Assembly (NCBI RefSeq): GCF_000018105.1
Contig: NC_009925.1
Location: 5,070,001-5,102,000 of the forward strand
Reading direction: 5' to 3'
DNA from: Acaryochloris marina MBIC11017
GTDB taxonomy: Bacteria; Cyanobacteriota; Cyanobacteriia; Thermosynechococcales; Thermosynechococcaceae
DNA length: 32,000 nucleotides
Below are positions 1,257-18,908 of this stretch, one piece after another. The notes under the pieces are model-generated. The model worked only from the letters and a program-made list of their open reading frames with translations. It did no database searches and was not told the origin of the DNA. Positions within the stretch are counted from its first letter, which is position 1. Every line of letters starts with the position of its first letter. The translations under genes were made by a program, and so were the position numbers.

Positions 1257-2288
1257 ATGATGACGATTACTTTTAAGCAATATCCAAAGTGTATTTCTGA
1301 TCTATTCAACTATGGATTAATGTACGCGGTGGCAGAATATAAAATTCATTCTCCACAACCCTTAACCCAGTCTGAAAGTTGGGGCTATTGGACTCAACCT
1401 AGATCACCATGGATGGAAGGGTTGGCAAGAATTTATCCGCTTAAGGCACAACGCATCTCTTTCCTAAATCGGATGCTTGCTCAAGATCATGCCAGCGGTA
1501 TTGAAACTCATTACGATGTTTCCAATGAGTTCTATGCTTTGTTCCTAGACGAAAGATATCGGTTTTATACCTGTGCTGAATTTCAGTCAGAACAAGATTC
1601 TTTAGAAGAGGCACAAGCCCATAAAGCTCAATATCTCTTATCGTTAATGCAATTGCAGGGGAACGAGAAGGTTCTAGATCTCGGGTGTGGTTGGGGAGCC
1701 ATGTTGAAGTTTCTCCAAGATTCAGGCCATCAGGGGCCATTAGCAGGATACACCCTATCAAAAGAGCAGTTAGCCTATGCTCAACAACGGTTAGGGTTAA
1801 ACGTCTCTCTCACTAATTTTATTACGGATCAGTTTGTAGAAACTCCCTATGATTGCATCTTTTCGATTGGTGCTTTAGAGCATGTTCGCCCCCATGAACT
1901 CACAGATTTGTACCAAAAAATTTATGATGCACTCGTTCCTGGTGGCAAAGCGGTGCATCAATTCTTCTCTCTGGAGCGTGAGCCCTATCCAGCATCAATG
2001 GTTTTGATGCAACTTTTTTTCCCAGGGTCTCTATTGTCTATGCATAAGACTCATCTCCAAATCGCTCATGAGGTCGGGTTCCGTATTACCCATGACTCAA
2101 TTCATGACTACAAACCCACTTTGAAAGCCTGGTATGAACGATTGGCCAAAAACCAAGATCAAGCGATTGAGCTAGTGGGGCTAGACATATTCAATCGCTA
2201 TATGACCTTTTTCCCGATCGCATGGCTGTTCTTTGAGCAGCATGAAGCTGAACTCCATAGAATCGTGATGGAAAAACCAGAGACTTAA
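1257..2288 (+). CDS. SAM-dependent methyltransferase, cyclopropane-fatty-acyl-phospholipid synthase (CMAS) family
   Basis: 343-aa ORF. It contains the CMAS block THYDVSNEFYALFLDERYRFYTCAEF...AQAHKAQYLL followed by SAM motif I, VLDLGCGWGAM. Confidence 0.85.
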   Translation: MMTITFKQYPKCISDLFNYGLMYAVAEYKIHSPQPLTQSESWGYWTQPRSPWMEGLARIYPLKAQRISFLNRMLAQDHASGIETHYDVSNEFYALFLDERYRFYTCAEFQSEQDSLEEAQAHKAQYLLSLMQLQGNEKVLDLGCGWGAMLKFLQDSGHQGPLAGYTLSKEQLAYAQQRLGLNVSLTNFITDQFVETPYDCIFSIGALEHVRPHELTDLYQKIYDALVPGGKAVHQFFSLEREPYPASMVLMQLFFPGSLLSMHKTHLQIAHEVGFRITHDSIHDYKPTLKAWYERLAKNQDQAIELVGLDIFNRYMTFFPIAWLFFEQHEAELHRIVMEKPET

Positions 2289-2346
2289 AAACTTAAATGA
2301 GAGGATCATGAACGAATCTTCACATTTTTGAGATCGAGAGGGATAT

Positions 2347-5300
2347 CTAGAGTATCTGCTCTAAAATTGTTGGGTCTTTAATCTCATGATCTTTAGCCAG
2401 CATAATGGCCTTGGAAATCACCTCTGCCGTTTTTGGATCATTATCGGCAAAGGGCAAAAAGAGCCGTCCTCGATGTTGACTATGAACGGGCACCACACAA
2501 ATTGCGCCACCGGGTTGACGATGCACCATTGCACTGCCCAGATGAACGCTATAGCTACCCATCTTCCCTTCGATTAAGGCATGAGAATTTTGCAGTTGAA
2601 TATTATTAAGCTGGAGCAGGCGGCTGGTTTCTTGGAGCAGGGAAGCTCTCATTTCTACCGTCGAAGCACTGGCTTCTGGATCGACGCCGCCCTGGTGGGC
2701 CACGCTGACGACTAGATCTAGATCCCGCATCACTTCACTAAAAAGACGGGAGGGAACGGCGGATAATTCCAGGGGCTTGTAGGTGGTGCGATCGCAAAAG
2801 CAAATCTGATCTAAGGTAAACCCTTCCACCTCCGTCGGCGTATACCAGCCCTCTTCAAATTCAAGCCAGACCACAATCTGTTGATCATGAAAGGTACGCC
2901 GAATCCCTTCGTCTGGATGGGCGACCCAGCCCCGCTTGCCCAGGAGGGCCAAGGACTGCCGAGGGTTGACTTGATGCCCTGCATACCGACAAGAGCCAGA
3001 ACCCCGGCCTTGTTGTTCTGCCGTAGTCAAAACATAGAGTTCTCGGAAAATCTGCTTAAAGGGTTGGACTAGCTCCGACTGGAAACAGTATTGCTGCCAG
3101 AGATGCCAATCATCCCGCTCGGCTAAATCAACGGAGTGAGCAATGCGTAGCTGCATGGATGCTGTGATGGCCACGGTCTGACCGTCATGGTTGAATAATC
3201 CATCCACCTGGGGCAATCCGGCTACCCCGGTATCACTCTCAATAAACACCAGGCGCTGTAATACGGGTTTTAACAGGGGATGGGCTAAGAGTTGCTTTAA
3301 CTCGGTGCCAGTGAACTGATCGCCCCGGCACATGGATTGTTCTAAGGATTGAGTGATACGACTGGCCTGCTGGGTAATCTCTTTTTTGCGCTGTTGCAGG
3401 GCTTTGATCTCTGGATTTTTGCGGAGTTTAGCTGGGACTGATTTGAGGGATTTCCCATTTTTAAGCACCGAAATCTGGGGTTTACCATCAGGAGTGATGG
3501 TTAAACTGACGGTGACCGGATCAATCTCTACGGACACAGCGCCAGTGGCCAAATCTTGGATCGCCATCCCTTCCATGGCCCATTCCAGCCGCTGCGGATC
3601 GGGATACCCAGCGGTGCGCGCTAAGTTATCCATGCTAATGCGAGCGGCTAGCTTTTCACTGGCTTGACGCTGGGAGCCAAACTTACGGCTCTCCCGCAGA
3701 AATTCTTGGATGATTTGATAGCGTTCCAGGAGGTCTGCGTCTCGCTTTTTCCCTCTTGCTAAAGGCAGTAGGCCCAAGGCCCGCACACTATCTTGATGGC
3801 GCTTGGTTTGCAGCCGTTTAATCAGGCCAGCTCGATCGGTTACCCCGGTCATAGCCTCGGCAAAGAGTTGTGCTCGCTTATGCCCTCCACCGCCAGAGGT
3901 GTACTTGGCGGCTTCATTTAAGGCCGTCCACCGATCCGACTTCATGCCTTTGCGAATCCGCTGAAACCAGGCCACATCCACAGCGCCATCCAACAAATCC
4001 TGGCTAGAGAGGGGCGTCCGTTCGGCAATCTGAGCGGCCCACAGGTTGCGAATATCAGCATCCACCTGCCAAGCCTCATCTTTGGTATGGGCATGAAACC
4101 ACCAAACGGCTTCCGCAAACCCTTTCCACCGCAGGGCATGTTCAATGTAATTCACCCATTGGGGCGCATACATGGCCAGCTCTACAAGCTGCTGGGTGGG
4201 GATAGCGGCAGCTTTAACGATTTTGGCAAAGTCCTGGGGCGTTTCGTCTTCTCCCGGAAAAGAAACCCGACATAGATGGCTTAATACCGCAGTCCGACTT
4301 TTACTATCCGAGACCCAACCCCGAATAAATTTTTCATTATCCAGCTTTTGCAGGAGGTTCACTACGGTGGCAATGCCTTCAATGGAACTGAGATTCTTGG
4401 CAACTTCAGTGGCTGCGGTGGGCAGTTCGCCTCGGGTAAGTTCGACTTCCAGGATGCGATCGCAACATTGATTCACGATCTGACCGATCTTGGGATTAGC
4501 CTGTATGCAGGGATGCGGCTTCCGTTGGGTCAACTCTCGCAGTTCGTTAAACCTCGAAGACATGGGGCGAGCACCAATTAAGTAATCGCAGAAATCTGCA
4601 TCAGTAGCAGCTTCAGCACCATAGGCTAGGGTAATTTCCTGCAACTCAGGCCGATGGCGTTGAATAAATCCTTCTTGGACAGTTTCAAAGCGGTCGTAGC
4701 TATAGCGAGTTTCTCCTGATTTAACCCGCCAATAGGGGACACTCTTATCGCTAGGTTCATCAATCCAACGCAGGAGCTGCCAAAGGTGGCGAAACTGTTC
4801 CACAGACCATTCTGTCGGGTGATCACGGAAATGAGATCTGGCTAAATTTAGCCACACCAACAGTCTTGAATGACGCCACTCCTTCCGCTTGCTTGCCGTA
4901 TGTTGATGGATGATAGCTAGGGTATATTGAGCTGCATTTAACAAGGCATCAATTAAATTTTGGGGTGGCTCCAAATAAATCAACCAAGATAGAAGGCCGG
5001 GTATCAAAGGGGAGGTTAGTTCAACTGGGCTAAACCACTGCTCAAAAAGTTCCAGTTGCCACTTGGGCGGTTGGTTGCGTCCACGATCCATTCCAAACTC
5101 GTAGTGAAATGGCTGGCTATTTGCACCATGACAAGCCGCAATGGCACGAATGATTTCCAATCCATCTGGATCTCGTAAAGCCTTTGGGCGATTCATTAAC
5201 CAAGTCTGCCAAACTTCTGCCAAAGGAAGTCTTTTTAGATTCTCCTCCTGAGATAGCTTGAAATCGGGTGTTGGCAGCCAGTAAAGATTCCCCAATAATT

Positions 5301-7269
5301 GTTCCTGGGGATAGTCGCTATTGAGTACAACCTCCTCAGTCCGGTGCTCGTCAATTAGTGCATGTAAGGAGGCCAGTATTTCTTGGGCTGCCTCGGAAAC
5401 CAAGGGAATGGGATGTTTGGGTTGTTTCGGGCATTGGGGATGCGATCGCAACTCCCAAGGCGCTAAACCCAAAGCATCATCCAAGGTGGGAATATCCTGT
5501 TGATCCGCCAGAAGCTGATCAAGCAGTTCTTGTTCACTTGCCGTCCGCTTGGGACGCTGGCTAGCGTAGGCTTCAGCGACGGGTTTGACCTGGCCCCGAT
5601 CCGTTTGCTGAAGTTGGACAAGCAGTTCTAACCCGGCTTTGCGCTGAGGGGCTTTAGACTGGCTTAGAAGTCGTTGGGCACTCTCAATGACGGCATCATC
5701 TTCTTGTTTTAACAACAAGGACAGCACACCCCTCCTCAAGTCTGCTGCTTTGCGATATAGCATCGACTCCAGGGTTTGGGCTTCAGGGGCAGTTGGACAG
5801 TAGCGATGAGCGTTGAGAGCACTCATGATTTGCTCCCGGACATAGCTACTGCGATCGCGAATTAGTTCAAAAACAACCTCCCGAGTCTGATCATCCCAAG
5901 TTTGCTTAATTAACTGTTTCCCCACTTCAATGCGGCCCCATTCGCCCATCATGGTTCGATAAGGCATTAACTGCTCAACAGGGCGGTCACCTAAACTGCG
6001 AACCAGATTGTCGGCAACACTCTGCAGGGTAATGGTGTAATTCATCCATGACCACACCAGGGGTTCAATGGATGTTTCTTTCGCGGAAAAGCGGTTGATA
6101 AACGTTTCTAATGCTTCAAAGCCAGCCCTGCATCCCAAGGAGAGATAGGCTTGAACGGCAACTCGGATATCATTGTCGGCAAGACTGGGAATAAGGGCCT
6201 CTCGGGCTTGACTGGTATCTAATTGACGAAGCAGATAAGCCGCCACAAATCTTTGCTCAACGGTCCCTGTTTTCAGAAGTTCCACGGCAGGTGGAATTGC
6301 TAGATCGACATTTTCGAAGGCCAGAGACCAAAGGGCGAGATAAACCCGATTAGGGTCATCATTTTGGAGGAACGCAGTTCGTTGGTTCGGGTGCTCCAAC
6401 ACCTGGAGAAGCAGTTCTAAACTTTCTTGCACCCGACGCTGATGCTCCACCTCCCAACCCAGGCCAAACCATACATCCACGGCTCGGATCGTGGCACTAA
6501 AGCGGACAAGATTATGCTCTAGGATAACGCGGACGATCCGTTGAAAGGCTTGGGGATGGGCTTCATCAATGGTTTCTAAAATGGTTTGCCGTAGTCCTTC
6601 TTGGCGTTGGGCAGCCACTAGCAGATTCTCAATCAACTCCCAGCCCTCGGGGCGATTGGCGACTAGCAGGGCGCGAGTCACATGCCGCCCCATGGCACCA
6701 ATCTCATGGTCACCCCGAGCGGAGTCACAGAGAGTCTCGAAAATCTGATCGCCTAAAGCATCGCCTTGGTTGATGGCTGCAGCGAACAAGCGCCCTAGAA
6801 GATCGGCACTATAGCCCAGATAAGGAGCCCAAGCTGCATACCAGTCCAGGGGCTGTTCATACCCTCGGACAATCCCCAGTAATGACTGAATAAAATTCCG
6901 ACGGGCAAATTCATGATGTTCAGGATGGTCCGAGCGAAAGGCTCTGCGAGAGTAACCCACCTGATAGGGGAGGGTCGTAATCAAATCGTAAGCTAGCAAC
7001 ACATAGTCGCTGATTTGAGGAAAGAGAACCTCAAAAAGTTGGGACCGCTCTGATTCTGAAAGCTCAATCGCGTCTTGACAGGGCTGCCAGTAGGGCTCTC
7101 GGTTATAGGGGTGGTCCCACTCATAGAGTGAATCATCTAGGCGCAACATTCTCCGGCCAATATGATTCAAGTGGTCCGGTAATGCGGCCAGTTCAGTGGC
7201 TCGGCGATCCGACCATTCTTCAACCCGAAATTTCTTCAGGGATTCCTGCGCAAGTTCACGATTTAGCAT
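2347..7269 (-). CDS. Giant 1640-aa protein of unknown function; HEAT/ARM-like helical N-terminal two thirds plus a DUF4132-like C-terminal region
   Basis: Uninterrupted 4.9-kb ORF. The N-terminal ~900 aa are helical-repeat-like. The block ISVLKNGKSLKSVPAKLRKN...LLAHPLLKPVLQRLVF...LRIAHSVDL...SELVQPFKQIFRELY (about nt 3010-3582) matches my memory of DUF4132 (E. coli YehI/MolR type). Further C-terminal blocks are VMRDLDLVVSVAHQGGVDPEASASTVEMR, YSVHLGSAMVH and LFLPFADNDPKTAEVISKAIMLAKD. I saw no P-loop or recognisable catalytic motif. The ATG lies 1 nt after the upstream stop and is preceded by GGGGGA. The CDS call is confident; the family assignment is about 0.5. Confidence 0.9.
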   Translation of the reverse strand: MLNRELAQESLKKFRVEEWSDRRATELAALPDHLNHIGRRMLRLDDSLYEWDHPYNREPYWQPCQDAIELSESERSQLFEVLFPQISDYVLLAYDLITTLPYQVGYSRRAFRSDHPEHHEFARRNFIQSLLGIVRGYEQPLDWYAAWAPYLGYSADLLGRLFAAAINQGDALGDQIFETLCDSARGDHEIGAMGRHVTRALLVANRPEGWELIENLLVAAQRQEGLRQTILETIDEAHPQAFQRIVRVILEHNLVRFSATIRAVDVWFGLGWEVEHQRRVQESLELLLQVLEHPNQRTAFLQNDDPNRVYLALWSLAFENVDLAIPPAVELLKTGTVEQRFVAAYLLRQLDTSQAREALIPSLADNDIRVAVQAYLSLGCRAGFEALETFINRFSAKETSIEPLVWSWMNYTITLQSVADNLVRSLGDRPVEQLMPYRTMMGEWGRIEVGKQLIKQTWDDQTREVVFELIRDRSSYVREQIMSALNAHRYCPTAPEAQTLESMLYRKAADLRRGVLSLLLKQEDDAVIESAQRLLSQSKAPQRKAGLELLVQLQQTDRGQVKPVAEAYASQRPKRTASEQELLDQLLADQQDIPTLDDALGLAPWELRSHPQCPKQPKHPIPLVSEAAQEILASLHALIDEHRTEEVVLNSDYPQEQLLGNLYWLPTPDFKLSQEENLKRLPLAEVWQTWLMNRPKALRDPDGLEIIRAIAACHGANSQPFHYEFGMDRGRNQPPKWQLELFEQWFSPVELTSPLIPGLLSWLIYLEPPQNLIDALLNAAQYTLAIIHQHTASKRKEWRHSRLLVWLNLARSHFRDHPTEWSVEQFRHLWQLLRWIDEPSDKSVPYWRVKSGETRYSYDRFETVQEGFIQRHRPELQEITLAYGAEAATDADFCDYLIGARPMSSRFNELRELTQRKPHPCIQANPKIGQIVNQCCDRILEVELTRGELPTAATEVAKNLSSIEGIATVVNLLQKLDNEKFIRGWVSDSKSRTAVLSHLCRVSFPGEDETPQDFAKIVKAAAIPTQQLVELAMYAPQWVNYIEHALRWKGFAEAVWWFHAHTKDEAWQVDADIRNLWAAQIAERTPLSSQDLLDGAVDVAWFQRIRKGMKSDRWTALNEAAKYTSGGGGHKRAQLFAEAMTGVTDRAGLIKRLQTKRHQDSVRALGLLPLARGKKRDADLLERYQIIQEFLRESRKFGSQRQASEKLAARISMDNLARTAGYPDPQRLEWAMEGMAIQDLATGAVSVEIDPVTVSLTITPDGKPQISVLKNGKSLKSVPAKLRKNPEIKALQQRKKEITQQASRITQSLEQSMCRGDQFTGTELKQLLAHPLLKPVLQRLVFIESDTGVAGLPQVDGLFNHDGQTVAITASMQLRIAHSVDLAERDDWHLWQQYCFQSELVQPFKQIFRELYVLTTAEQQGRGSGSCRYAGHQVNPRQSLALLGKRGWVAHPDEGIRRTFHDQQIVVWLEFEEGWYTPTEVEGFTLDQICFCDRTTYKPLELSAVPSRLFSEVMRDLDLVVSVAHQGGVDPEASASTVEMRASLLQETSRLLQLNNIQLQNSHALIEGKMGSYSVHLGSAMVHRQPGGAICVVPVHSQHRGRLFLPFADNDPKTAEVISKAIMLAKDHEIKDPTILEQIL

Positions 7270-7270
7270 G

Positions 7271-7702
7271 TTATCCCCCTACCAGTGCAACGAGTCGAAT
7301 AAACGTTAAGCGGCTATCGAGCTTGAGATGCACGGTGGCATCTAACGCTTCCTGCTGCACATCATCCAGAAATACGTAGTACAGCCCATCAATAAAGCCC
7401 ATAATGGCGGTCTCGATCGCCGCCGCCTCATCCACGCCTTGTTCAAAGTCGCGATCGCCCATGGTTACTTTGCCCTCAGCCAAGCCCTGATGGATCTCGT
7501 CCTTCCTTAGGAACCGCTGTAACTTCTGCTCCGTTTGCCGCGTTTGAAAAGCCTGGACTTCAGCCCTCACTACACAGGTAATCAGGTCACGGAGCGTGAG
7601 GGGAGAATCTTGTAGAGAAGGTGGGATGGGAATGGACCAATCAGAAAAGATGGGACGTCGTTTCCCAACGACTTTTCCCTCAACGGTGATACAGGAAGTC
7701 AT
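7271..7702 (-). CDS. 143-aa hypothetical protein ending in Gly-Gly (candidate beta-grasp/ubiquitin-like tail), translationally coupled to the giant ORF
   Basis: The ORF ends ...LKLDSRLTFIRLVALVGG-TAA. Its stop (7271-7273) is separated by a single nt from the ATG of the 1640-aa gene (7267-7269). A promoter-like -35/-10 pair lies just upstream. I recognised no known family. Confidence 0.7.
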   Translation of the reverse strand: MTSCITVEGKVVGKRRPIFSDWSIPIPPSLQDSPLTLRDLITCVVRAEVQAFQTRQTEQKLQRFLRKDEIHQGLAEGKVTMGDRDFEQGVDEAAAIETAIMGFIDGLYYVFLDDVQQEALDATVHLKLDSRLTFIRLVALVGG

Positions 7703-7720
7703 GTGATTAGGAGGAGAAGT

Positions 7721-7760
7721 GAAACAAATGTACTATAGCCAATGAAAATTAAATTGTCAT
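7721..7760 (-). promoter_or_regulatory. Promoter-like element for the 143-aa/1640-aa genes, with an overlapping LexA-box-like motif
   Basis: On the minus strand: ATGACA (7755-7760), a 17-nt spacer, then TATAGT (7732-7737). AGTACATTTGTTTC (7721-7734) has one mismatch to the cyanobacterial LexA consensus RGTACNNNDGTWCB and overlaps the -10. The element lies 19-58 nt upstream of the ATG at 7702. Confidence 0.35.
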
Positions 7761-7791
7761 CAGTGAAAAAGCAGAATCTTGCGGGTGATAC

Positions 7792-7995
7792 TCAATCTAC
7801 TTCTAGGGAATGTTCAACCAGGAACCGCCCTGCTGATAATGCCCCTAGATTACTCTCATAGAACTCACCATCGGTATGGACCTGATGTTCGGGGGTGATC
7901 ACCCAACATTGATATCCCCATTCCAATGCATAGGAGACACCAATTAGCCATCCACCGGGAAATCCAACTAAATCGGTTAGGGAGTCTATTGCCAT
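7792..7995 (-). CDS. 67-aa hypothetical protein
   Basis: The ORF has a strong Shine-Dalgarno (GGGAGGG) a few nt upstream of its ATG. It has the same orientation as the 143-aa and 1640-aa genes and lies 89 nt upstream of them. I recognised no family. Confidence 0.5.
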
Positions 7996-8039
7996 TCAAC
8001 CCTCCCTACAAAGAGGAAAAAGAAACTTTTTTTGCCCTG

Positions 8040-8073
8040 TTGACACAAGACTAGTACAAGTATACTATACTAG
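8040..8073 (+). promoter_or_regulatory. recA promoter with a LexA-box-like palindrome
   Basis: TTGACA (8040-8045), a 17-nt spacer, then TACTAT (8063-8068). AGTACAAGTATACT (8053-8066) has one mismatch to RGTACNNNDGTWCB. It is embedded in the inverted repeat CTAGTA-N11-TACTAG (8051-8073). Confidence 0.5.
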
Positions 8074-8110
8074 TCGAACAACCTCAAATTATCCTTTTGG
8101 AGACCCAATC

Positions 8111-9169
8111 ATGGCCACCCATACCGACGCTTCCGAAAAGCAAAAAGCCCTGGACTTGGTGATGAAAAATGTGGAACGGACCTTTGGTAAAGGGTCAATT
8201 ATGCGTCTTGGGGATGCCACGCGGATGCAGATTGAAACCATTTCTACAGGCGCTTTGACTCTGGATCTGGCGTTGGGGGGCGGGCTACCCAGGGGACGAG
8301 TGATTGAGATCTATGGTCCTGAAAGTTCTGGAAAAACCACCGTAGCGTTACATGCGATCGCACAGATCCAAAAAAACGGCGGAGTCGCGGCCTTCGTCGA
8401 TGCTGAACATGCCCTAGACCCGGTCTATGCCGCTGCCTTGGGGGTCGATGTTTCTGAACTTCTGGTCAGCCAGCCTGACTCCGGCGAGATGGCCCTAGAA
8501 ATTGTCGATCAGCTGGTCCGCTCTAGTGCCGTTGATCTGGTGGTGGTGGATTCCGTGGCTGCCCTCACCCCCCGTGCTGAAATCGAAGGGGATATGGGCG
8601 ATTCCCACATGGGATTACAGGCTCGGTTAATGAGTCAGGCCCTCAGAAAAATCACCAGTAATATTTCCAAATCCGGCAGTACTGTTATTTTCCTCAACCA
8701 GCTTCGCCAGAAGATTGGTGTGACCTACGGTAGCCCCGAAGTCACCACAGGCGGAAACGCCCTCAAATTCTATGCTTCCGTTCGCCTCGATATCCGCCGC
8801 ATTCAAACCCTCAAAAAAGGCACGGATATGTTTGGGATTCGGGCCAAAGTCAAAGTCGCCAAGAACAAAGTGGCTCCTCCGTTTCGAATTGCCGAGTTTG
8901 ACATTCTGTTCGGCCAAGGCATTTCCACTACAGGATGCCTGGTTGATATGGCCGAAGAAACAGATGTGATTGTTCGCAAAGGGGCTTGGTATAGCTTCGA
9001 TGGCAACAATATTGGCCAGGGACGAGAAAATACGATTCAGTACTTTATCGATAATCCGGAATTCGCTGAGAATGTCGAGCAACAAGTCCGCCAGAAGTTG
9101 GAGTTAGGGGCTGAAGTCTCTGCCAATTCGATCACAGCTGTGGAAGTTGAGGAAGAAGAGGCCGCATAA
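8111..9169 (+). CDS. recA: Recombinase RecA
   Basis: Walker [10 protein letters not shown], the typical RecA core ([27 protein letters not shown]), and an acidic C-terminal tail (EVEEEEAA). Confidence 0.98.
8354..8361. repeat. HIP1 octamer GCGATCGC (one representative of 11 perfect copies)
   Basis: Perfect copies start at 2788, 4456, 5442, 5851, 7451, 8354, 12426, 18675, 20466, 24417 and 24674. Confidence 0.9.
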
Positions 9170-9245
9170 TACCGGCTTAATCTCCATCCCCTATCATTTC
9201 AACGCTTAATTTGTCCGACCTGATTCTTACATTGAGGAACATTCA

Positions 9246-9626
9246 ATGATTGGATATGTGACTTTAGGTACAAACGATATCGCTAAAGCAGCCCAGTTTT
9301 ATGATTCTCTTTTCGAGGTGCTTGGCGGCAGCAGGTTTATGGAGTTCGAAAGTTTTATTGCCTGGAGTACGGGACCCGATCAGCCCAGCGTCTGTGTAAC
9401 CAAACCCTTCAATGGCGAGCCTGCCACCGTTGGCAATGGCGTCATGATTGCCCTCATGGTGGATAGCAATGACAAAGTAGATGAAGTCTACAAAAAGGCC
9501 ATTGAGCTGGGTGCCCAAGATGAAGGTCCAGCCGGGCCAAGAGGCGACATAGAAGGATTCTATGCGGGCTACTTCCGGGATCTAGATGGTAATAAACTCA
9601 ATGTTTTTCATATGCCTTCGCCCTAA
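9246..9626 (+). CDS. VOC family protein (glyoxalase/bleomycin-resistance/dioxygenase fold), single domain
   Basis: 126 aa. The N-terminus (IGYVTLGTNDIAKAAQFYDSLF) and C-terminus (YFRDLDGNKLNVF) are typical of small VOC proteins. Confidence 0.8.
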   Translation: MIGYVTLGTNDIAKAAQFYDSLFEVLGGSRFMEFESFIAWSTGPDQPSVCVTKPFNGEPATVGNGVMIALMVDSNDKVDEVYKKAIELGAQDEGPAGPRGDIEGFYAGYFRDLDGNKLNVFHMPSP

Positions 9627-9779
9627 AAGGTTGCAGGCATTATTAATTGACTGCGTCTGATCGCAGAGGCAGCATCATTTCGGCCTTAATCTGCAGTACC
9701 TATTTTCCGAAATCGCACAACTAAACCACAGTAATTCCGCATACGACTGACTACTGCTTAAAAGCAAAAGGAGACAGCC

Positions 9780-10556
9780 ATGGGTTTACAGGATCAAATC
9801 GGCAGTTTTTGCTGGTGGAGTTTAATGACAAAGGATGTGCCAAAAGCAAATGAGTTTTATCATCAGCTCTTTGATTGGCAGTTGAGTGAAATGGAAATTC
9901 CCGGCCATGACAATGCCACGATTTACGCTGCGGGAAAAGGTGGATTTGCCAATCCAGTCCCCATCGAGAACGACTTTCCGTTCCCCAGCCACTGGATTGC
10001 CTACATCACTGTTGCCAATGTCGAGCAAGCCTGTCAGCAGGCAGAAAAGTTGGGGGGCAAGGTCAGTGTTCCTACCTTTGAGATTCCATCCGTGGGCCAC
10101 ACAGCCGTGATCAATGATCCGGTTGGCTCCGCTTTTCATGTCTTCACCCCAGAGCAGGACAGTGACGATCTGAATATGATCGGTAATGGTCCTGGAGAGG
10201 TTTGCTGGATGGAACTTCTAGTCGATGATCCAACTGCTGCTTTACCCTTCTACTCCGAACTATTTGGCTGGCAGTTTTCCGCTCCTATGCCTATGAACGG
10301 TGGAGAGTATTACATCGCCAAGGTGAATGGTGAGGATGTGGGCGGGATTATGAAGCGACCGCCAGATGTACCCCAGATGCCCCCCGTCTGGATGAACTAC
10401 TTCTCCGTCAACTCAGTGGATCAGTGGTCAGATAAGGTCCAATCCTTAGGGGGTAAGATTGTGGTACCCAAAACGGAAATACCGGGGACGGGATTTTTTG
10501 CCTGTATGGAAGATCCAACCGGTGCCCATTCCTATTTATTTGAGCTGGCCCGTTAA
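9780..10556 (+). CDS. Two-domain VOC family protein (Rv0577/CFP32-like)
   Basis: 258 aa with two tandem halves. Each starts F/CW.EL...D...A..FY..LF.WQ and ends with a G-rich beta segment (DPVGSAFHVF / DPTGAHSYLF). An AAGGAGA RBS precedes the ATG. Confidence 0.8.
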   Translation: MGLQDQIGSFCWWSLMTKDVPKANEFYHQLFDWQLSEMEIPGHDNATIYAAGKGGFANPVPIENDFPFPSHWIAYITVANVEQACQQAEKLGGKVSVPTFEIPSVGHTAVINDPVGSAFHVFTPEQDSDDLNMIGNGPGEVCWMELLVDDPTAALPFYSELFGWQFSAPMPMNGGEYYIAKVNGEDVGGIMKRPPDVPQMPPVWMNYFSVNSVDQWSDKVQSLGGKIVVPKTEIPGTGFFACMEDPTGAHSYLFELAR

Positions 10557-10584
10557 ACTTTTAGCACGTCAGCGTGTTTGAATT

Positions 10585-12816
10585 ATGACCTACGAGGCCG
10601 CTCATCCGACTCATCCCCCGACCGAACAGTTACAAGGGGTTGTAGAGCGGCTAACCTATCATTCCGATGAATCGGGATATACCGTGGCCCGCTTCAAAGC
10701 CCCTAGAACCCGTGAGTTAATCACCATTGTGGGCAGCTTTGCTAATATCCAAGCGGGCCAAACCCTCCAAGTTCAGGGGATTTGGCGGGATCATCCTAAA
10801 TACGGCGCTCAATTTCAAGTCAAACAATACCAAGAAACGAAACCCGCTACCCTGACGGGGATTGAAAAGTACCTCGGGAGTGGCTTAATTAAGGGCGTGG
10901 GTCCGGTCACCGCCAAGCGCATCGTCGCTCATTTTGGCCTAGAAACCCTGGATATTATTGAGAACCAGATTGAGCGCCTAGTTGAAGTCCCCGGCATTGC
11001 CAAGAAGCGAGTCAAACTGATTCAGACCGCTTGGGACAGCCAGAAAACCATCAAAGAGGTGATGGTGTTCCTCCAGGGCCATGGTGTCTCCACTACCTAT
11101 GCTGTCAAAATCTTTAAGCAGTATGGAGACGAAGCCATCGATATCGTCACCCAGAATCCCTACCGACTGGCAACGGATGTCTATGGCATTGGCTTTATCA
11201 CTGCCGATCAAATTGCCCGTAGCTTAGGCATTCCTCCTCACTCAGAGTATCGCTATCGCAGTGGCCTCCTACATGTCCTTAGCGAGTCCGCCGATGAAGG
11301 GCATTGTTATCTACCTCAACCTGAGCTGATCACTCGGGCCGTAAAGCGATTGGCCCTCCCCGAATATCAGCCCAAGCCCGATCAAGTGGAATATTTGATC
11401 CATGCCATGGTCGCGGACGCTGAGCTGATTGTTGAACAGTTTGAACGGGAGGATGCAACGGAATTGTTGTGCTATGCTCCTCCCTTCTTTCGAGCGGAGT
11501 TTCATTTGTCTCGCCGATTACTCCAATTACTCGCCAATCCCCTAGAAGTCGATCAGGGTCGAGTCCGTCGTTGGCTCGATCGGTTTATGGAACAAACGAA
11601 TGTCCATCTCTCGGAGCAACAGCAGCAGGCTGTGGAGTTGGCCGCTAGCCAGCGAGTTGTCATTCTCACGGGTGGACCGGGCACGGGGAAGACCTTTACC
11701 ACCCGGACCATTGTCGCCCTCTGGAAAGCCATGGGGAAAGAGATTGTATTGGCTTCTCCCACCGGACGAGCTGCCCAGCGACTCAGCGAAGTAACGGGTC
11801 ACGAAGCGAAAACCATCCATCGCCTTTTAGAGTTTGACCCTAAAACCATGAAGTTTCAGCGGGATGTAGACCACCCCATTCCTGCTGATGCGGTGGTGAT
11901 TGATGAAGCATCCATGCTGGATTTGTTTCTAGCCAATTCCCTAATTAAAGCCATTGATACCAATGCCCAACTGTTGCTCGTGGGGGATACGGATCAGCTA
12001 CCCAGCGTCGGACCCGGAAATGTGCTGCTGGATCTGATTACCGCCCAGAGAATTCCCGTCATGGAACTAACAGAGGTTTTTCGTCAAGCCCAAGCCAGTC
12101 AAATTATCCAAAATGCTCATCAGATTAACCAAGGCAAGTTCCCCCATCTAGAGTCTGTCAGCCCTGCGCCCAAGACGGATTGTCTCTGGCTTGGGGCACC
12201 TGAGCCGGAGCAGGGTCAGCAAGCGATTCAAGAACTCATCAATGATCTGATTCCGCAATTGGGATATGTGGCGGCACGAGATGTGCAGGTCCTTTGTCCT
12301 ATGACCAGAGGAGAGGTGGGGACTCGCAAGCTGAATCAAGTTCTGCAGGCATTGATTAATCCCCCTAGTCCGAGTAAAGCTGAGTTAACCCGAGGGGGGC
12401 TGATTCTTAGGGTGGGCGATCGCGTACTTCAACAGGTCAATGATTACAATCGCGAGGTCTTCAATGGCGATATGGGGGTGATCGAGGCGATTAATCTAGA
12501 AGAGGTTGCCGTGACGGTTCGGTATGCTGAGCGGTCTGTTTCTTATGATCTGGCAGACTTAAATGAAATAGGGTTGGCTTGGGCCGTCACGATTCATAAG
12601 AGCCAGGGGTCAGAATATCCCGTTGTGATCCTGCCTATGTATATGCAGCATTACATTATGCTGAGCCGCAATCTGCTCTACACAGGTTTGACGAGGGCTA
12701 AGAAACTGGCGATTCTAGTGGGTCCCAAAAATGCAATCAGCATGGCGATTCGACAGGTGAAGGATAAGCAGCGATATACCTTGCTGGACAAGCGGTTGAG
12801 CTTTGTTGCTCAGTGA
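10585..12816 (+). CDS. recD2: ATP-dependent RecD-like DNA helicase (RecD2, SF1B)
   Basis: 743 aa. N-terminal OB-like region with HhH-like segments (GIGFITADQIA), Walker A GGPGTGKTF, VIDEASM, LVGDTDQLPSVGPG, and C-terminal AVTIHKSQGSEYP. Confidence 0.9.
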   Translation: MTYEAAHPTHPPTEQLQGVVERLTYHSDESGYTVARFKAPRTRELITIVGSFANIQAGQTLQVQGIWRDHPKYGAQFQVKQYQETKPATLTGIEKYLGSGLIKGVGPVTAKRIVAHFGLETLDIIENQIERLVEVPGIAKKRVKLIQTAWDSQKTIKEVMVFLQGHGVSTTYAVKIFKQYGDEAIDIVTQNPYRLATDVYGIGFITADQIARSLGIPPHSEYRYRSGLLHVLSESADEGHCYLPQPELITRAVKRLALPEYQPKPDQVEYLIHAMVADAELIVEQFEREDATELLCYAPPFFRAEFHLSRRLLQLLANPLEVDQGRVRRWLDRFMEQTNVHLSEQQQQAVELAASQRVVILTGGPGTGKTFTTRTIVALWKAMGKEIVLASPTGRAAQRLSEVTGHEAKTIHRLLEFDPKTMKFQRDVDHPIPADAVVIDEASMLDLFLANSLIKAIDTNAQLLLVGDTDQLPSVGPGNVLLDLITAQRIPVMELTEVFRQAQASQIIQNAHQINQGKFPHLESVSPAPKTDCLWLGAPEPEQGQQAIQELINDLIPQLGYVAARDVQVLCPMTRGEVGTRKLNQVLQALINPPSPSKAELTRGGLILRVGDRVLQQVNDYNREVFNGDMGVIEAINLEEVAVTVRYAERSVSYDLADLNEIGLAWAVTIHKSQGSEYPVVILPMYMQHYIMLSRNLLYTGLTRAKKLAILVGPKNAISMAIRQVKDKQRYTLLDKRLSFVAQ

Positions 12817-14759: not shown

Positions 14760-15368
14760 ATGGCACGCCCACCAAAAATCTCGAATGAAAATATTCTGGC
14801 GATAGCACGAGAGATCTTCCTGGAACAGGGGGTGGGGGCTTCAACCCTTGATATTGCTGAGCAGGTTGGAATTTCTGAAGCCTCCATCTTCAAGCGGTTC
14901 AAAACAAAGCAAACTTTATTTGCTGCAGCCATGGGCATTTTGGAGCAACCGCCATGGTTGTCTGTACTCGCAGATTATGAGCCCACAGCCAATGTCAAAT
15001 CGGAACTTACCGATATTTGTGAGCAAATGTTGGCGTTCTATCAGGATCTAATGCCACGGGTTTTGATGGTAATGGCTCAAGGTAAAGTATCCGCTCCACT
15101 ACCGATAGTGCCACCACCCATCCGAGATCGAAAGCTCTTAGTTGGCTTTCTTGATCGAGCAGTGCAAGCAGGCCATCTCCGAACCTGTGATACGCAGACT
15201 GTCGCACAGATGATTATTGGAACCATCATCAATACTGTTGTTACTCAGCATATGATCCACAAATTATCTATCCAGCCATCCATGCCAAATTTTGTATTTC
15301 CGCCTTCAGAAACGCTTATCAAAAATTTGATTGAGACGTTGTGGATGGGGATTGCACCTGATTCATAA
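14760..15368 (+). CDS. TetR/AcrR family transcriptional regulator
   Basis: 202 aa with the N-terminal HTH region ILAIAREIFLEQGVGASTLDIAEQVGISEASIFKRFKTKQ. Confidence 0.9.
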   Translation: MARPPKISNENILAIAREIFLEQGVGASTLDIAEQVGISEASIFKRFKTKQTLFAAAMGILEQPPWLSVLADYEPTANVKSELTDICEQMLAFYQDLMPRVLMVMAQGKVSAPLPIVPPPIRDRKLLVGFLDRAVQAGHLRTCDTQTVAQMIIGTIINTVVTQHMIHKLSIQPSMPNFVFPPSETLIKNLIETLWMGIAPDS

Positions 15369-15388
15369 ATTTTTTATTCAATTCGTAA

Positions 15389-15400
15389 GTAAGTACTTAC
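15389..15400. promoter_or_regulatory. Second copy of the operator palindrome, upstream of the exporter genes
   Basis: GTAAGTACTTAC (15389-15400) is identical to the 12-nt core of the palindrome at 14735-14746. It lies 33 nt before the GTG start of the adaptor gene. Confidence 0.55.
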
Positions 15401-15432
15401 ATTTTATCGCTTGAATATCTTGGAGGCCAACA

Positions 15433-16935
15433 GTGGTTTCGAGTCAAATACCTACGCAAGAGCCCCGTCAACCACCAAAAAAATATTCCTTATGGCGTAG
15501 GCTTCGATGGGGGTTGTTGGTGTTGATGATTGTCTTTGGTCCTGGTCGAACGAGTGTCCAATTTTTAATGGCTCGCAGGGAATCCTCTGGGACACAACTG
15601 TTGACTCAATCTGTAGAACGGAAAACGCTACCCGTGACGATTACGGCCAATGGGGAGGTTCATGCAGCTCGATCAATTAATCTTAGTCCCAAATCGGCTG
15701 GGGTGATTGAACAACTATTGGTGCAGGAGGGAGATCGTGTTCGTCAAGGTCAGTTGATGGCGATCATGGATGATGCCAATCTGCGAGGGCAACTGATCCA
15801 GGTGCAGGGCCAGCTTGCCCAGCAAGAAGCAAACCTCCAGCGGCTGCTCGCTGGAAATCGCCGAGAGGATATCGCTAAGGCCAAAGCTCAGCTCACGGAA
15901 GCTCGTGCCCAATTACAGCAATTGCAGTCAGGAAGCCGTCCCCAGGAAGTTGCTCAGGCGGAGGCCCGTCTACAGCAAGCCCAAGCTACGTTAAAGCTAA
16001 GAGAAACGGATTGGCAACGATACCAGCAGCTTTATCAAGCAGGTGCAGTCTCCCGAGAAAGTCGCGATCAAAAACGGACAGATCGTGATGTTGCCAAGAA
16101 TCAGGTTCGGGAAGCAGAACAAGCCCTAGCTTTGCAACAGGCAGGCCCTCGCTCTGAAGAATTGACACAGGCAGAGGCCCGAGTCACGCAGCAAGAACAA
16201 ACCCTTGCAGCCCTTCAGGCGGGGAACCGAACGGAGGATATAGCCCAGGCTCGTGCCCAGGTCTTATCAGCCCAAGGGTCACTCGCTACGATTCAAGCTC
16301 AGCTGCGGGATGCCAAAATCCTGGCTCCCTTCGATGGGGTGATCACCCAAATTTATGCGGATGTGGGGGCTTTTGTCAGCCCGTCTATGGCTGGGAGTGG
16401 CATCTCCGCTTCATCTTCTTCGATTTTGACCTTAGCGAGTGATCGCTATGAGGTCGTCGTCAATCTATCGGAAGCCCAAATTGCTCAAGTCAAACTGGAT
16501 CAGAAGGTGAACGTGAAGATTGATGCGCTACCAAAGACGCCTTTGACGGGGACTGTTTCCCAAATTGCGCCCCAAGCCACCGTCACCCAAAACGTCACCA
16601 GTTTTGAAGTTAGGGTCACTCTCCCATCTACTACTACCGAGAAGTTGAAGGTTGGGATGAATGTAGAAGCAGACTTTGAGGTGGATCGATTGGAGAATGC
16701 ACTCTTGGTCCCCAATGCAGCGGTTGTTCGCCAAGCTAACCAAGAGGGGGTTTATATATTAGCGGAGAATCGTCAACCGAAGTTTCAAGTGATTCAAACG
16801 GGAGCAACGGCCAACGGACAAACAGAGGTGACTTCAGGGCTGAAGGGGCAAGAGAGAGTGTTGATCAGTCCGCCTACAGAGTCAAAATCAGGACCTAACC
16901 GACGGCTTCCCTTTGGTCCGCGTCCTCAGGAGTAG
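15433..16935 (+). CDS. Efflux periplasmic adaptor (HlyD/MacA/DevB-like membrane fusion protein)
   Basis: 500 aa. GTG start with GGAGG at 15422-15426, an N-terminal membrane anchor, a long Q/A-rich coiled-coil hairpin with repeated GNR.EDIA.A.AQ units, and a beta-barrel C-terminal half. Confidence 0.9.
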   Translation: MVSSQIPTQEPRQPPKKYSLWRRLRWGLLVLMIVFGPGRTSVQFLMARRESSGTQLLTQSVERKTLPVTITANGEVHAARSINLSPKSAGVIEQLLVQEGDRVRQGQLMAIMDDANLRGQLIQVQGQLAQQEANLQRLLAGNRREDIAKAKAQLTEARAQLQQLQSGSRPQEVAQAEARLQQAQATLKLRETDWQRYQQLYQAGAVSRESRDQKRTDRDVAKNQVREAEQALALQQAGPRSEELTQAEARVTQQEQTLAALQAGNRTEDIAQARAQVLSAQGSLATIQAQLRDAKILAPFDGVITQIYADVGAFVSPSMAGSGISASSSSILTLASDRYEVVVNLSEAQIAQVKLDQKVNVKIDALPKTPLTGTVSQIAPQATVTQNVTSFEVRVTLPSTTTEKLKVGMNVEADFEVDRLENALLVPNAAVVRQANQEGVYILAENRQPKFQVIQTGATANGQTEVTSGLKGQERVLISPPTESKSGPNRRLPFGPRPQE

Positions 16936-16937
16936 TT

Positions 16938-18200
16938 ATGGCAGTTTTCAAATCCAAGCCTCAGCGGATTTCAGCCTTTGAAATTGGAGAAATGGCAATT
17001 GTCGCACTCTGGGACAACAAGCTCCGCAGTGGACTGACGATGTTGGGCGTGATTATCGGCATCGGTTCAGTTATTTCAATTTCCTCCATCGGTCAGGGGA
17101 TTCAGCAATCGACTGAAGATAGTATTCGCAGCCTGGGTACGGATGTGTTGCAGGTGATGGCAGGGTCAGCGAAAAGCGGTGGGGTTAGCCAAGGTCAGGG
17201 GTCGATCACAACCCTGACTTGGGAAGATGCTAAAGCGATAGAAGCCCAAGCACCCTCTGCAACTGTTGTTTCAGCATACTTACAGCGCAATACTCAAGTT
17301 GTCTATGGTGAAGAAAACACGGCCACCACAGTCTATGGTGCTGATCTCAGCTATCCCGAAGCCCGCAATACTTTCCCAAAAACAGGACGATTCTTTACTG
17401 CAGAGGAACTGGAAACCGCCGCTTCAGTAGTCGTAATTGCCCCTACCGTTCAAAGCAATTTATTCCCTAATCACGTCAATCCCATTGGTGAAAAGCTGCG
17501 GATTCAGGGAGAGATATACGAGATAATTGGGGTGATGGAAGCTAAAGGCTCTCAAGGTCCCATTGATCGCGATGATGCAGTCTATATCCCCCTGACCAGT
17601 ATGTCGGCTCGGATTATCGGTAACAATGCCCTGATTGGTGTATCAGTAAATGGAATCTATATTAAGGGCCAGGACGAATCTCAACTCGATATTGTCAAGT
17701 TCCAGGTGGAGAATATCCTCCGCCTTCGGCATAATATTTCCTCTCCTGCAGAGGATGATTTCCGGATTACAAATCAGGCCGATATTCTGCAAACCTTCAC
17801 CACAATTTTGGGTTTGCTAACAATCATGATTGTGACCATTGCTGGGATCTCCCTGGTCGTGGGAGGGATTGGCATTGCCAACATCATGTTGGTGTCTGTA
17901 GTAGAACGCACACGGGAGATTGGAATTCGCAAAGCGTTAGGGGCTACGGATGGAGCAATTCTGAGCCAATTTCTAACGGAGTCGGTGGTGATTTCCGTCG
18001 TGGGGGGTGTAATTGGCATTGTTCTGGGGGTAGGCATCACCTTTATTTCAGCGACTGCCTTTGGCTTTACTTTTATTGTGTCCAGTAGTGCGGTGGCGAT
18101 TGGTGTTGGTTTATCCACTACGGTTGGCTTAGTCGCAGGGGTTATTCCCGCTCGCAACGCAGCCCGACTCGACCCCATTGAGGCTCTTCGCAGTGATTAG
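16938..18200 (+). CDS. ABC transporter permease, MacB/FtsX (DevC-like)
   Basis: 420 aa. One N-terminal TM helix, a large periplasmic domain, and a C-terminal FtsX region (VERTREIGIRKALGA). Its start is 2 nt after the adaptor gene's stop. Confidence 0.9.
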   Translation: MAVFKSKPQRISAFEIGEMAIVALWDNKLRSGLTMLGVIIGIGSVISISSIGQGIQQSTEDSIRSLGTDVLQVMAGSAKSGGVSQGQGSITTLTWEDAKAIEAQAPSATVVSAYLQRNTQVVYGEENTATTVYGADLSYPEARNTFPKTGRFFTAEELETAASVVVIAPTVQSNLFPNHVNPIGEKLRIQGEIYEIIGVMEAKGSQGPIDRDDAVYIPLTSMSARIIGNNALIGVSVNGIYIKGQDESQLDIVKFQVENILRLRHNISSPAEDDFRITNQADILQTFTTILGLLTIMIVTIAGISLVVGGIGIANIMLVSVVERTREIGIRKALGATDGAILSQFLTESVVISVVGGVIGIVLGVGITFISATAFGFTFIVSSSAVAIGVGLSTTVGLVAGVIPARNAARLDPIEALRSD

Positions 18201-18908
18201 GTGTCTAAAGCGAGCGTGTCAGCCATGATTATTCTGGAAAATATTACCAAATGCTATCAACTGGGTGACAATCAAGTCCCCATTTTGAGAGGAATCGACC
18301 TTCACATCCAGCCAGGAGAGTATGTCTCCATCATGGGTGCCTCAGGCTCTGGTAAATCAACATTAATGAACATCATCGGTTGCTTAGATCAGCCCACGGA
18401 TGGTCAATATTTTCTGGATAACCGCAACCTAACCACTTTTACCAAAGATGAATTAGCGCTAATACGCAATCAACAGATTGGCTTTGTGTTTCAACAATTT
18501 AATCTATTGCCTCGTTCCACCGCCTTGGAGAACGTGATGTTGCCCATGATCTATGCAGGGATTCCAAAATCAGAGCGGCGTTGTCGAGCTGTTGAGATGT
18601 TGGATCGAGTAGGACTAGGCGACCGCCTGATGAATCGTCCGAGTCAGCTTTCAGGTGGACAGCAGCAACGGGTTGCGATCGCACGAGCCCTAGTGAATAA
18701 TCCTGCCTTGCTATTAGCAGATGAACCAACAGGAGCCCTGGATTCTCAAACCTCACAAGAAGTCATGAATTTGTTTCAGACTTTGAACCAACAGGACATT
18801 ACGATTGTGGTAATTACCCATGAACTTGAGGTCGCCACCCAAGCCCAGCGTCGCATCACGATTTGTGATGGTCAGATATTGAATCATTCCAAAGGCGAGG
18901 TAACCTAA
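18201..18908 (+). CDS. ABC transporter ATP-binding protein (MacB/DevA-like)
   Basis: Walker [10 protein letters not shown], signature [15 protein letters not shown], and Walker B LLLADEPT. The track's GTG start abuts the permease stop. An ATG at 18225 (MIILENITK...) is an equally plausible start. Confidence 0.9.

Follow-up and report, generated by a model that had tools for sequence, protein, structure and literature searches.

A conserved two-gene cassette beside recA in Acaryochloris marina pairs a small glycine-tailed protein with a giant DUF4132 protein and has a candidate role in the DNA-damage response

What is encoded by the minus-strand genes that lie back-to-back with recA in Acaryochloris marina MBIC11017, and are they connected with DNA damage? 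The question arises from a stretch of 32,000 nucleotides (nt) of contig NC_009925.1 (positions 5,070,001 to 5,102,000; hereafter the window), in which an initial annotation, made from the letters alone, described three co-oriented open reading frames (ORFs) of 67, 143 and 1640 amino acids (aa) as one unit. The coordinates and minus-strand orientation of all three ORFs are verified here. The conserved unit, which is a self-contained cassette, consists of two genes, the 143-aa gene followed by the 1640-aa gene. A role in the response to DNA damage or genotoxic stress is the best-supported reading of this cassette, because its orthologs appear to lie under two repressor systems (LexA-type and DdrO), because some of the giant proteins are fused to a WGR domain, and because LexA control has been reported for MolR, an Escherichia coli protein that shares the DUF4132 domain. 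The two genes and their junction, in positions of the window, are as follows:

2347 to 7269, minus strand: gene of the giant protein, 1640 aa, cassette gene 2 (ORF and translation; Pfam DUF5724, DUF4132 and DUF7737)
7271 to 7702, minus strand: gene of the small partner, 143 aa, cassette gene 1 (translation; C-terminus ...VALVGG)
7267 to 7279, minus strand: gene junction, GGG GGA TAA C ATG in the minus-strand reading (sequence)

A profile of the 143-aa protein recovers relatives in 253 species genomes, and the best 80 loci were examined, of which 75 are informative in that at least 1 kb of DNA is present downstream of the small gene. In 72 of these 75 loci, which represent at least seven phyla, the small gene is directly followed on the same strand by a homolog of the giant, and the two genes are usually separated by 1-10 nt or overlap at the stop and start codons. 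The coupling of the pair that had been proposed from the 1-nt gap between the stop codon of the 143-aa gene (7271-7273) and the ATG of the giant (7267-7269) is supported, and the suggested survey of gene neighbourhoods confirms the linkage. The pair is conserved in Cyanobacteria, Planctomycetota, Armatimonadota, Chloroflexota, Verrucomicrobiota, Gemmatimonadota, Deinococcota and Bacteroidota, and no further gene recurs beside it in the 80 loci. Additionally, tblastn searches of plasmids and secondary replicons reveal the small protein in four Deinococcus species, Chondrinema, Fulvitalea and Bacteroides finegoldii.

The exceptions to the pairing look like decay of the cassette. In locus L009 (9966-10561), the operator and the small gene are kept and the giant is reduced to a 96-nt remnant of its 3' end; in L006 (8610-13602), the giant is split over three ORFs; and in L008 and L077, the small gene is solitary. 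Either the small gene is able to outlive the giant, or these four cases are assembly artefacts.

The third ORF of the initial annotation and the neighbouring recA gene do not belong to this unit:

7792 to 7995, minus strand: 67-aa gene, outside the cassette (ORF; homologs Acaryochloris-specific)
8111 to 9169, plus strand: recA, neighbour outside the conserved unit (Pfam RecA, E-value 1e-132)

The 67-aa protein matches an A. marina protein at 100% identity and has 20 homolog clusters, and all of those that carry an organism name are from Acaryochloris or Acaryochloridaceae; the gene is absent at every examined locus outside Acaryochloris. A paralog on a 393-kb A. marina replicon (L203, 6001-6204) is again divergent from recA, here a recA-RecD2 pair, and is followed by genes for an acetyltransferase and an RNB protein with no cassette present, which indicates that the 67-aa gene belongs with recA. 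A three-gene operon was rejected because the 67-aa gene is missing outside Acaryochloris and its paralog tracks recA without the cassette. In addition, the promoter-like element and the LexA-like box of the cassette (7760-7721) sit downstream of the 67-aa ORF and directly before the 143-aa gene. The proposed proximity of orthologous pairs to recA was also surveyed, and recA and the 67-aa ORF adjoin the cassette in only two of the 80 loci, both from Acaryochloris.

The 67-aa family has several paralogs per Acaryochloris genome, and one UniRef member is titled 'Immunity protein 35 domain-containing protein'. In both contexts examined, the 67-aa gene stands head-to-head with a copy of recA, and a LexA-like box is located in the shared region.

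The initial annotation regarded the family as functionally blank, which is too strong a statement, as two papers on the Deinococcus ortholog exist (PMC8533742, PMC9650054). Judged by sequence, the Acaryochloris cassette is orthologous to DRA0165-DRA0166 of D. radiodurans, a pair that was assigned by its position after trxC. The small homolog has 134 aa, is 42% identical and ends in ...ALAGG, and the gene of the giant homolog starts 2 nt later. The giants are of similar length (1626 and 1640 aa) and share the order of DUF5724, DUF4132 and DUF7737; their identity is 48% for the C-terminal 778 aa and 32% in the N-terminal part. The two loci thus have in common the two-gene layout, the Gly-Gly end, the architecture of the giant and a damage-responsive operator upstream. 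They differ in that the operator in Deinococcus is a radiation-desiccation response motif (RDRM) bound by DdrO, whereas the box in Acaryochloris is of the LexA type, and in that the Deinococcus cassette adjoins trxC on chromosome II, whereas the Acaryochloris cassette adjoins recA.

The RDRM GGTTATGCTATTTACATAAC is located 83 nt upstream of DRA0165 and matches the table of PMC8533742, and RDRM-like palindromes are present upstream of the pair in D. psychrotolerans (TTATGCTATTTACATAA) and D. ficus (TTCTGCTATTTACAGAA); the positions in the Deinococcus loci are 7913-7932 in L082, approximately 5920-5940 in L206 and approximately 5910-5927 in L208. DdrO binds the RDRM of DRA0165-DRA0166, depletion of DdrO leads to strong up-regulation of the operon, and mitomycin C induces the DRA0166 protein in an IrrE-dependent manner, and the pair belongs to the DdrO/IrrE regulon of the radiation-desiccation response (PMC8533742). 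Together with the LexA-like operators that are conserved in cyanobacteria, this induction supports the link to DNA damage that had been suggested from the recA neighbourhood.

The product of DR_A0165 has been studied separately under the name 'SEP068184' (PMC9650054). The protein rises after gamma irradiation and after treatment with hydrogen peroxide (H2O2), in its absence the cells survive H2O2 better and have more catalase activity, and it binds the thioredoxin Trx1 (DR_A0164) in pull-downs. These observations are the basis for an alternative reading in which the cassette is mainly a regulator of redox or oxidative stress, the small protein dampening antioxidant capacity by binding thioredoxin, in line with the proposal made for SEP068184 of D. 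radiodurans, and DNA damage being one of several inducers. We consider this reading doubtful, since the adjacency to thioredoxin is missing in D. ficus, D. psychrotolerans, B. finegoldii and all cyanobacterial loci, and since the operators found are of the DNA-damage type (LexA, DdrO). The published interpretation also ignored the 1626-aa partner, and DR_A0166 is not mentioned in the accessible portion of the supplementary files (co-immunoprecipitation data). In addition, two statements of the same study are contradicted here: the protein is not restricted to Deinococcus, as the small family spans many phyla and 253 species, and an RDRM is not lacking, as it is found at -83 and is kept in D. 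ficus and D. psychrotolerans.

If the cassette responds to DNA damage in Acaryochloris as well, an operator of the SOS type may be expected before the small gene. The promoter-like elements and palindromes in question are as follows:

7732 to 7760, minus strand: sigma-70-like cassette promoter, ATGACA-17 nt-TATAGT (consensus scan, 10 of 12 matches)
7721 to 7734, minus strand: LexA-box-like operator AGTACATTTGTTTC, overlapping the -10 element (one mismatch to RGTACNNNDGTWCB; matrix score 13.4)
8040 to 8068, plus strand: recA promoter-like element, TTGACA-17 nt-TACTAT (consensus scan)
8053 to 8066, plus strand: LexA-box-like palindrome AGTACAAGTATACT inside the recA promoter-like element (one mismatch to RGTACNNNDGTWCB; matrix score 15.5)
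Leptolyngbya-type cyanobacteria: AGTTC-N4-GAACT-variant site, TATAGTTCAATTGAACTAT

LexA-box-like motifs are thus present at both promoter-like elements, as initially noted. On a weight matrix built from 46 published cyanobacterial LexA boxes (PMC3091678), the recA site ranks first and the site at the 143-aa promoter second in the window. Both boxes resemble those of the cyanobacterial LexA regulon described there (RGTACNNNDGTWCB or AGTACWNWTGTACT) in having one mismatch and overlapping a -10 element, and the cassette box AGTACATTTGTTTC closely resembles the autoregulatory box of A. marina lexA, AGTACAGGTGTTTT (PMC3091678). A similar box, TAGTAATCTTGTACTA, is present upstream of the recA paralog. 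The window contains 7 sites of the RGTACNNNDGTWCB type, a raw count that does not exceed chance (5.9 expected), and the significance of the LexA-like boxes is therefore attributed to their position and their conservation in orthologs and not to the motif count.

This conservation is clear among the cyanobacterial orthologs, 11 of 13 of which carry a LexA-like palindrome approximately 23-38 nt before the start codon; within the 120 nt upstream, 11 of the 13 loci have a site that ranks first or second in the whole locus on the LexA matrix. The arrangement ATGACA-N17-TATAGT is also visible in L004, L007 and L008. Most cassette orthologs differ from the canonical regulon in that they use the variant AGTTC-N4-GAACT: perfect palindromes of this form lie 32-38 nt ahead of the small gene and over TATAGT in L004-L009, a version with one mismatch is found in L003, and AGTAC-type boxes are found in L021 and L028. 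The variant has six copies in 1.19 Mb of locus DNA, where 0.05 are expected, and all six are located at 32-38 nt before the small gene. Outside the cyanobacteria, a box similar to the Cheo box (AGAAC-N4-GTTCT, one mismatch) lies upstream in three loci, two from Chloroflexota and one from Armatimonadota, with 0.23 expected. Genes beside the other high-scoring LexA-matrix sites in the cyanobacterial loci include no SOS gene, and the main text of the 2010 survey of the LexA regulon does not name the cassette (PMC3091678).

The variant half-site raises an alternative for the cyanobacterial copies, namely that AGTTC-N4-GAACT serves as operator for a different regulator, such as a repressor of the PadR type, and that the control is unrelated to SOS. 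At a conserved position, the GTTC half-site departs from the canonical GTAC or GAAC, and the 18-mer ATAGTTC-N4-GAACTAT stands right before PadR-family genes in at least six GC-rich soil or environmental metagenome contigs (L095, L126, L146, L160, L176 and L183), where it apparently serves, judged by its placement, as an autoregulatory PadR operator. The metagenome scan for this 18-mer returned at least 120 matches, mostly due to chance, and none of the matches listed lies beside recA, lexA or the cassette. We regard this alternative as unlikely, although it carries more than a token probability. AGTAC-type boxes occupy the same position in the Acaryochloris, Microcoleus and Xenococcaceae orthologs, and the AGTTC sites score 10-12.5 on the literature LexA matrix, at the top of their loci. 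AGTTC and GAACT half-sites also occur in published predicted LexA boxes, those of alr4905 and of recA of strain PCC 7002 (PMC3091678). Furthermore, no PadR gene recurs near the cassette, and the Deinococcus orthologs are under a damage-responsive repressor.

One cyanobacterial locus of the Thermosynechococcaceae (L007) contains both types of site, a canonical LexA-type box, AGGACATAAGTACT (score 14.3), and an AGTTC-N4-GAACT box, at 1561-1574 and 1995-2008, approximately 430 nt apart. The two boxes share the intergenic region between a PsbQ-like gene and the cassette.

The small protein is 94-95% identical to its counterparts in two metagenome-assembled genomes of Acaryochloris, and none of its 220 close homologs contains a Pfam domain. 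A profile search of 1.84 billion representative proteins returns 2094 clusters of the family (E-value of at most 0.001); the best 150 of these are all stand-alone proteins of approximately 135-160 aa that end where the profile ends. The C-terminal motif F-[LV]-R-L-x-x-L-x-G-G is invariant in 30 diverse members, and the GG terminus that had been read from the translation (...VALVGG) is found in 122 of the 150 representatives (81%); 13 end in GA, and a few carry one to five other residues after the conserved Gly. The truly invariant residue of the family is the penultimate Gly.

The AlphaFold2 model of the small protein has a predicted local distance difference test (pLDDT) value of 78 and shows the order beta-beta-long alpha-alpha-beta-beta-beta with a disordered tail. 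In a Foldseek comparison with the PDB, the template modelling score is approximately 0.5 on target length and the top 12 matches, none of them significant, are almost all beta-grasp proteins, with MoaD (1fm0_D) first and a trypanosome ubiquitin-like protein, SAMP1, ISG15, the ubiquitin-like domain of parkin and ThiS behind it; SUMO and DIX domains are likewise among the matches. A PDB sequence search and a Pfam search with the small protein give nothing meaningful, and relaxed Pfam scans of 30 homologs reveal no consistent remote family. The small protein models as a putative beta-grasp, MoaD- or ubiquitin-like fold with a flexible Gly tail, and an independent group has predicted a fold similar to molybdopterin synthase for DR_A0165 (PMC9650054). 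The likeness to MoaD, ThiS and ubiquitin lies in the predicted topology and the flexible C-terminal Gly-Gly. The small protein differs from them in an insert of approximately 60 residues with an extra helix, in sequence and structure scores that are not significant, in a terminus that is sometimes other than GG, and in the lack of an E1 or MoeB partner at the cassette locus.

The terminal Gly codons of the small gene also form a Shine-Dalgarno-like purine run before the ATG of the giant, and in 33 of the 80 orthologous loci the two Gly codons spell GGAGGN 5-10 nt ahead of the giant start. The same bases of the junction may be constrained twice, by the sequence of the protein and by translation. 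That GG is kept solely as the ribosome-binding site of the giant was considered and rejected, because GG remains at loci where the genes are spaced by 50-150 nt, with codons such as GGT GGT, which indicates that at least part of the constraint falls on the protein. A scan of 2000-10000 of the window with Rfam detects zero RNA families.

The giant protein contains three Pfam domains in a fixed order, all above their gathering scores:

3574 to 7083, minus strand: DUF5724, alpha-helical, residues 63-1232 (Pfam E-value 1.2e-235, 785.9 bits, cut-off 25)
2926 to 3456, minus strand: DUF4132, residues 1272-1448 (Pfam E-value 7.5e-52, 176.3 bits, cut-off 27)
2353 to 2658, minus strand: DUF7737, residues 1538-1639 (Pfam E-value 7.1e-37, 126 bits, cut-off 27)

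The DUF4132 assignment of the initial annotation is therefore correct. Its approximately 900 aa of HEAT/ARM-like repeats are found in part: HEAT-like repeats are detectable only at approximately residues 300-520, where designed alphaRep proteins match residues 301-398 in the PDB sequence search (E-value 5e-7) and HEAT_2 is sub-threshold in Pfam, and the full extent is not recovered. These designed repeats are the only return of the PDB sequence search with the giant. The profile and structure searches that had been recommended place the giant in DUF families only and find no solved relative of its C-terminal model, so that the statement that it has no recognisable enzymatic motif holds as far as database matches are concerned; NCBIfam gives zero matches for the 67-, 143- and 1640-aa proteins.

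A conservation profile of 50 full-length orthologs reveals three peaks in the giant. The first is at residues 201-240 and contains the block AQRxEGLRQxxLE (approximately 219-232). The second, at residues 1401-1450 in DUF4132, contains the near-invariant QPFKQxFRExY...RYxGxQ, and the third, at residues 1501-1640, contains FSExMRDxDLxVSVAHxGxVDPEA, HLGS and GRxFLPFxDxDP, DUF7737 being the most conserved stretch of the protein. Invariant Asp, Glu, His and Arg residues are numerous in the C-terminal region, where Cys 1395 is near-invariant; such a pattern would be expected of an active site or of a specific binding pocket. The AlphaFold2 model of residues 1241-1640 has a pLDDT of 86 and no significant Foldseek match in the PDB (best E-value 0.25) or among the viral predicted structures of BFVD (best E-value 0.02), and relaxed Pfam scans of 42 homologs of the C-terminal part yield no consistent remote family. 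In two orthologs (P0167 and P0204), a WGR domain is fused C-terminally, after DUF7737; WGR is known as the DNA-break-binding domain of the poly(ADP-ribose) polymerases.

On one contig with a WGR-bearing ortholog (L211, 562-5838), the giant is called as two genes of 710 and 660 aa that are approximately 1.1 kb apart, which may represent a frameshifted or interrupted copy. Genes for a DNA methyltransferase and an AP_endonuc_2-family protein (PF01261) are located just downstream of it.

In light of these features, the small protein could be a true ubiquitin-like modifier or sulfur carrier, its Gly being activated and then attached to targets or converted to a thiocarboxylate, with a novel activating or ligating activity supplied by the giant, or with a housekeeping E1 of the MoeB/ThiF type acting in trans. 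The beta-grasp-like model with its disordered Gly-Gly tail and the prevalence of the GG end agree with this, as do the occasional short extensions after the Gly, which resemble the precursors of ubiquitin-like proteins (B. finegoldii, ...LSGRLW), and the invariant Asp, Glu and His clusters and near-invariant Cys of the giant C-terminal module. However, E1/adenylation, E2, JAMM and other domains of ubiquitin-like systems are not found in the giant by Pfam, NCBIfam or Foldseek, and no E1-like, E2 or JAMM gene is among the recurring neighbours. Approximately 10% of the family members end in GA, G, GL or GI, and the GG codons are additionally constrained as a ribosome-binding site. Because of the missing adenylating, E2 and JAMM parts, the terminus that is not strictly GG and a beta-grasp assignment that is itself not significant, this reading is ranked lower and is considered improbable. 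A specific form of it, a damage-induced tagging or sulfur-transfer system in which the DUF4132-DUF7737 module of the giant would activate the Gly tail and attach it to targets at DNA lesions, has only a slim chance of being correct; if true, it would parallel, in prokaryotes and with unrelated enzymes, the ubiquitin signalling of DNA repair.

The explanation that we slightly favour over all others taken together is that the cassette encodes a damage-induced complex of the small and giant proteins that acts at DNA lesions and is controlled by LexA in Acaryochloris. Judged by the operator, LexA would repress the cassette, and DNA damage would activate RecA and derepress the cassette together with the neighbouring recA. 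Coupled translation would then deliver the small and giant proteins in a fixed proportion, and the two may form a stoichiometric complex in which the flexible Gly tail of the small subunit docks into the DUF4132-DUF7737 module of the giant, by analogy with the tail of MoaD in MoaE, while the helical N-terminus of approximately 1200 aa may act as a scaffold. The weakest step is the last one, in which the complex would act at damaged nucleic acid or on proteins recruited there, and this step is proposed because of the WGR fusions in some orthologs and the existence of WGR-DUF4132 proteins such as E. coli MolR.

Several observations weigh against this explanation. Shuffled sequence reaches a mean top score of 13.6 on the LexA matrix, so the two LexA-like sites of the window are not above it by score, and the AGTTC-N4-GAACT variant of the other cyanobacteria departs from the canonical AGTAC half-site; since the 18-mer form of the variant precedes PadR-family genes, another repressor could bind it. 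The beta-grasp assignment of the small protein is not statistically significant (best Foldseek E-value 0.095), and a DNA-binding or catalytic domain is not detected in the Acaryochloris giant by Pfam, NCBIfam or Foldseek. Additionally, the DR_A0165 knockout is more resistant to H2O2 and shows little effect of ultraviolet or gamma irradiation, which is not simply the behaviour of a DNA repair gene (PMC9650054).

The comparison with E. coli that had been drawn from the DUF4132 blocks can now be made more precise. As stated in the initial annotation, yehI adjoins yehLMPQ in E. coli, and partners of this kind are missing here: there is no MoxR, vWA or SWIM gene in the window, and none recurs in the 80 related loci. 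The designation as YehI/MolR type is imprecise, as YehI carries DUF4132 alone, whereas the giant combines it with DUF5724 and DUF7737. YehI also has no upstream partner ending in GG, as the end of YehK is not GG, and is flanked by the MoxR, vWA and SWIM genes. By its domain composition, the giant is a different architecture within the DUF4132 superfamily and not a YehI-like protein. What the systems share, apart from DUF4132 in YehI and in MolR (YehH), is WGR, which is present in the E. coli protein YehF, in MolR and in orthologs P0167 and P0204. MolR combines WGR and DUF4132 and has been described as a member of the LexA regulon (PMC8533742). A literature search on YehI and yehLMPQ returned nothing on function.

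The DUF4132 domain common to the giant and YehI, which sits beside yehLMPQ, and the frequent occurrence in defence loci of large repeat proteins that have small partners also suggest a system for phage defence or conflict, akin to the YehI/MoxR-vWA-SWIM cluster of E. coli; a link to conflict had been raised in the initial annotation. This is very improbable. PADLOC gives no match for the 67-, 143- and 1640-aa proteins at E-values up to 1, phage genomes contain no homologs of the cassette, and its plasmid matches are confined to large non-mobilizable replicons. The MoxR, vWA and SWIM genes are missing as described above, and the cassette is flanked by varied housekeeping genes and not by defence islands.

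A link to the DNA-damage response remains the preferred reading, and its scope is broader than the Deinococcus literature suggests. The operon type has been described and part of the damage link has been published for Deinococcus. What is added here is a pan-bacterial two-gene unit, present in hundreds of species from at least seven phyla; a small subunit that is predicted to be a Gly-tailed beta-grasp protein; a conserved LexA-like operator on the cyanobacterial copies; and a C-terminal module of the giant without a detectable solved structural relative. The same cassette appears to be under two unrelated damage repressors in distant phyla, DdrO in Deinococcus and LexA-type boxes in cyanobacteria and certain other lineages, a case of convergent regulation. 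Three separate observations are thereby joined, the entry in the Deinococcus radiation regulon, the 'Deinococcus-specific' small peptide and the DUF4132/DUF5724/DUF7737 families. The operator, the Gly tail, the invariant acidic/His cluster and the WGR fusions are testable handles. If the Gly tail is used chemically, the cassette would represent a new kind of bacterial protein modification tied to DNA damage; otherwise, it still ranks among the larger uncharacterised members of bacterial damage regulons.

Several other features of the window were observed. On the strand of recA, positions 8111-12816 contain recA, a glyoxalase-fold gene (9246-9626), a glyoxalase/bleomycin-resistance-like gene (9780-10556) and a RecD2 helicase gene (10585-12816), which forms a small cluster with a DNA-damage flavour. 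A TetR regulator gene is followed by HlyD-type, MacB/FtsX-type and ABC ATPase genes at 14760-18908, a typical tripartite efflux operon that is unrelated to the cassette. The fourth-ranked LexA-matrix match of the window, which is its third distinct site, is AGTTTAAATGTTCT (21600-21613, score 11.65); it is located 20 nt before psbU (21634-22113) and falls in the kilobase with the lowest GC content of the window (0.352).

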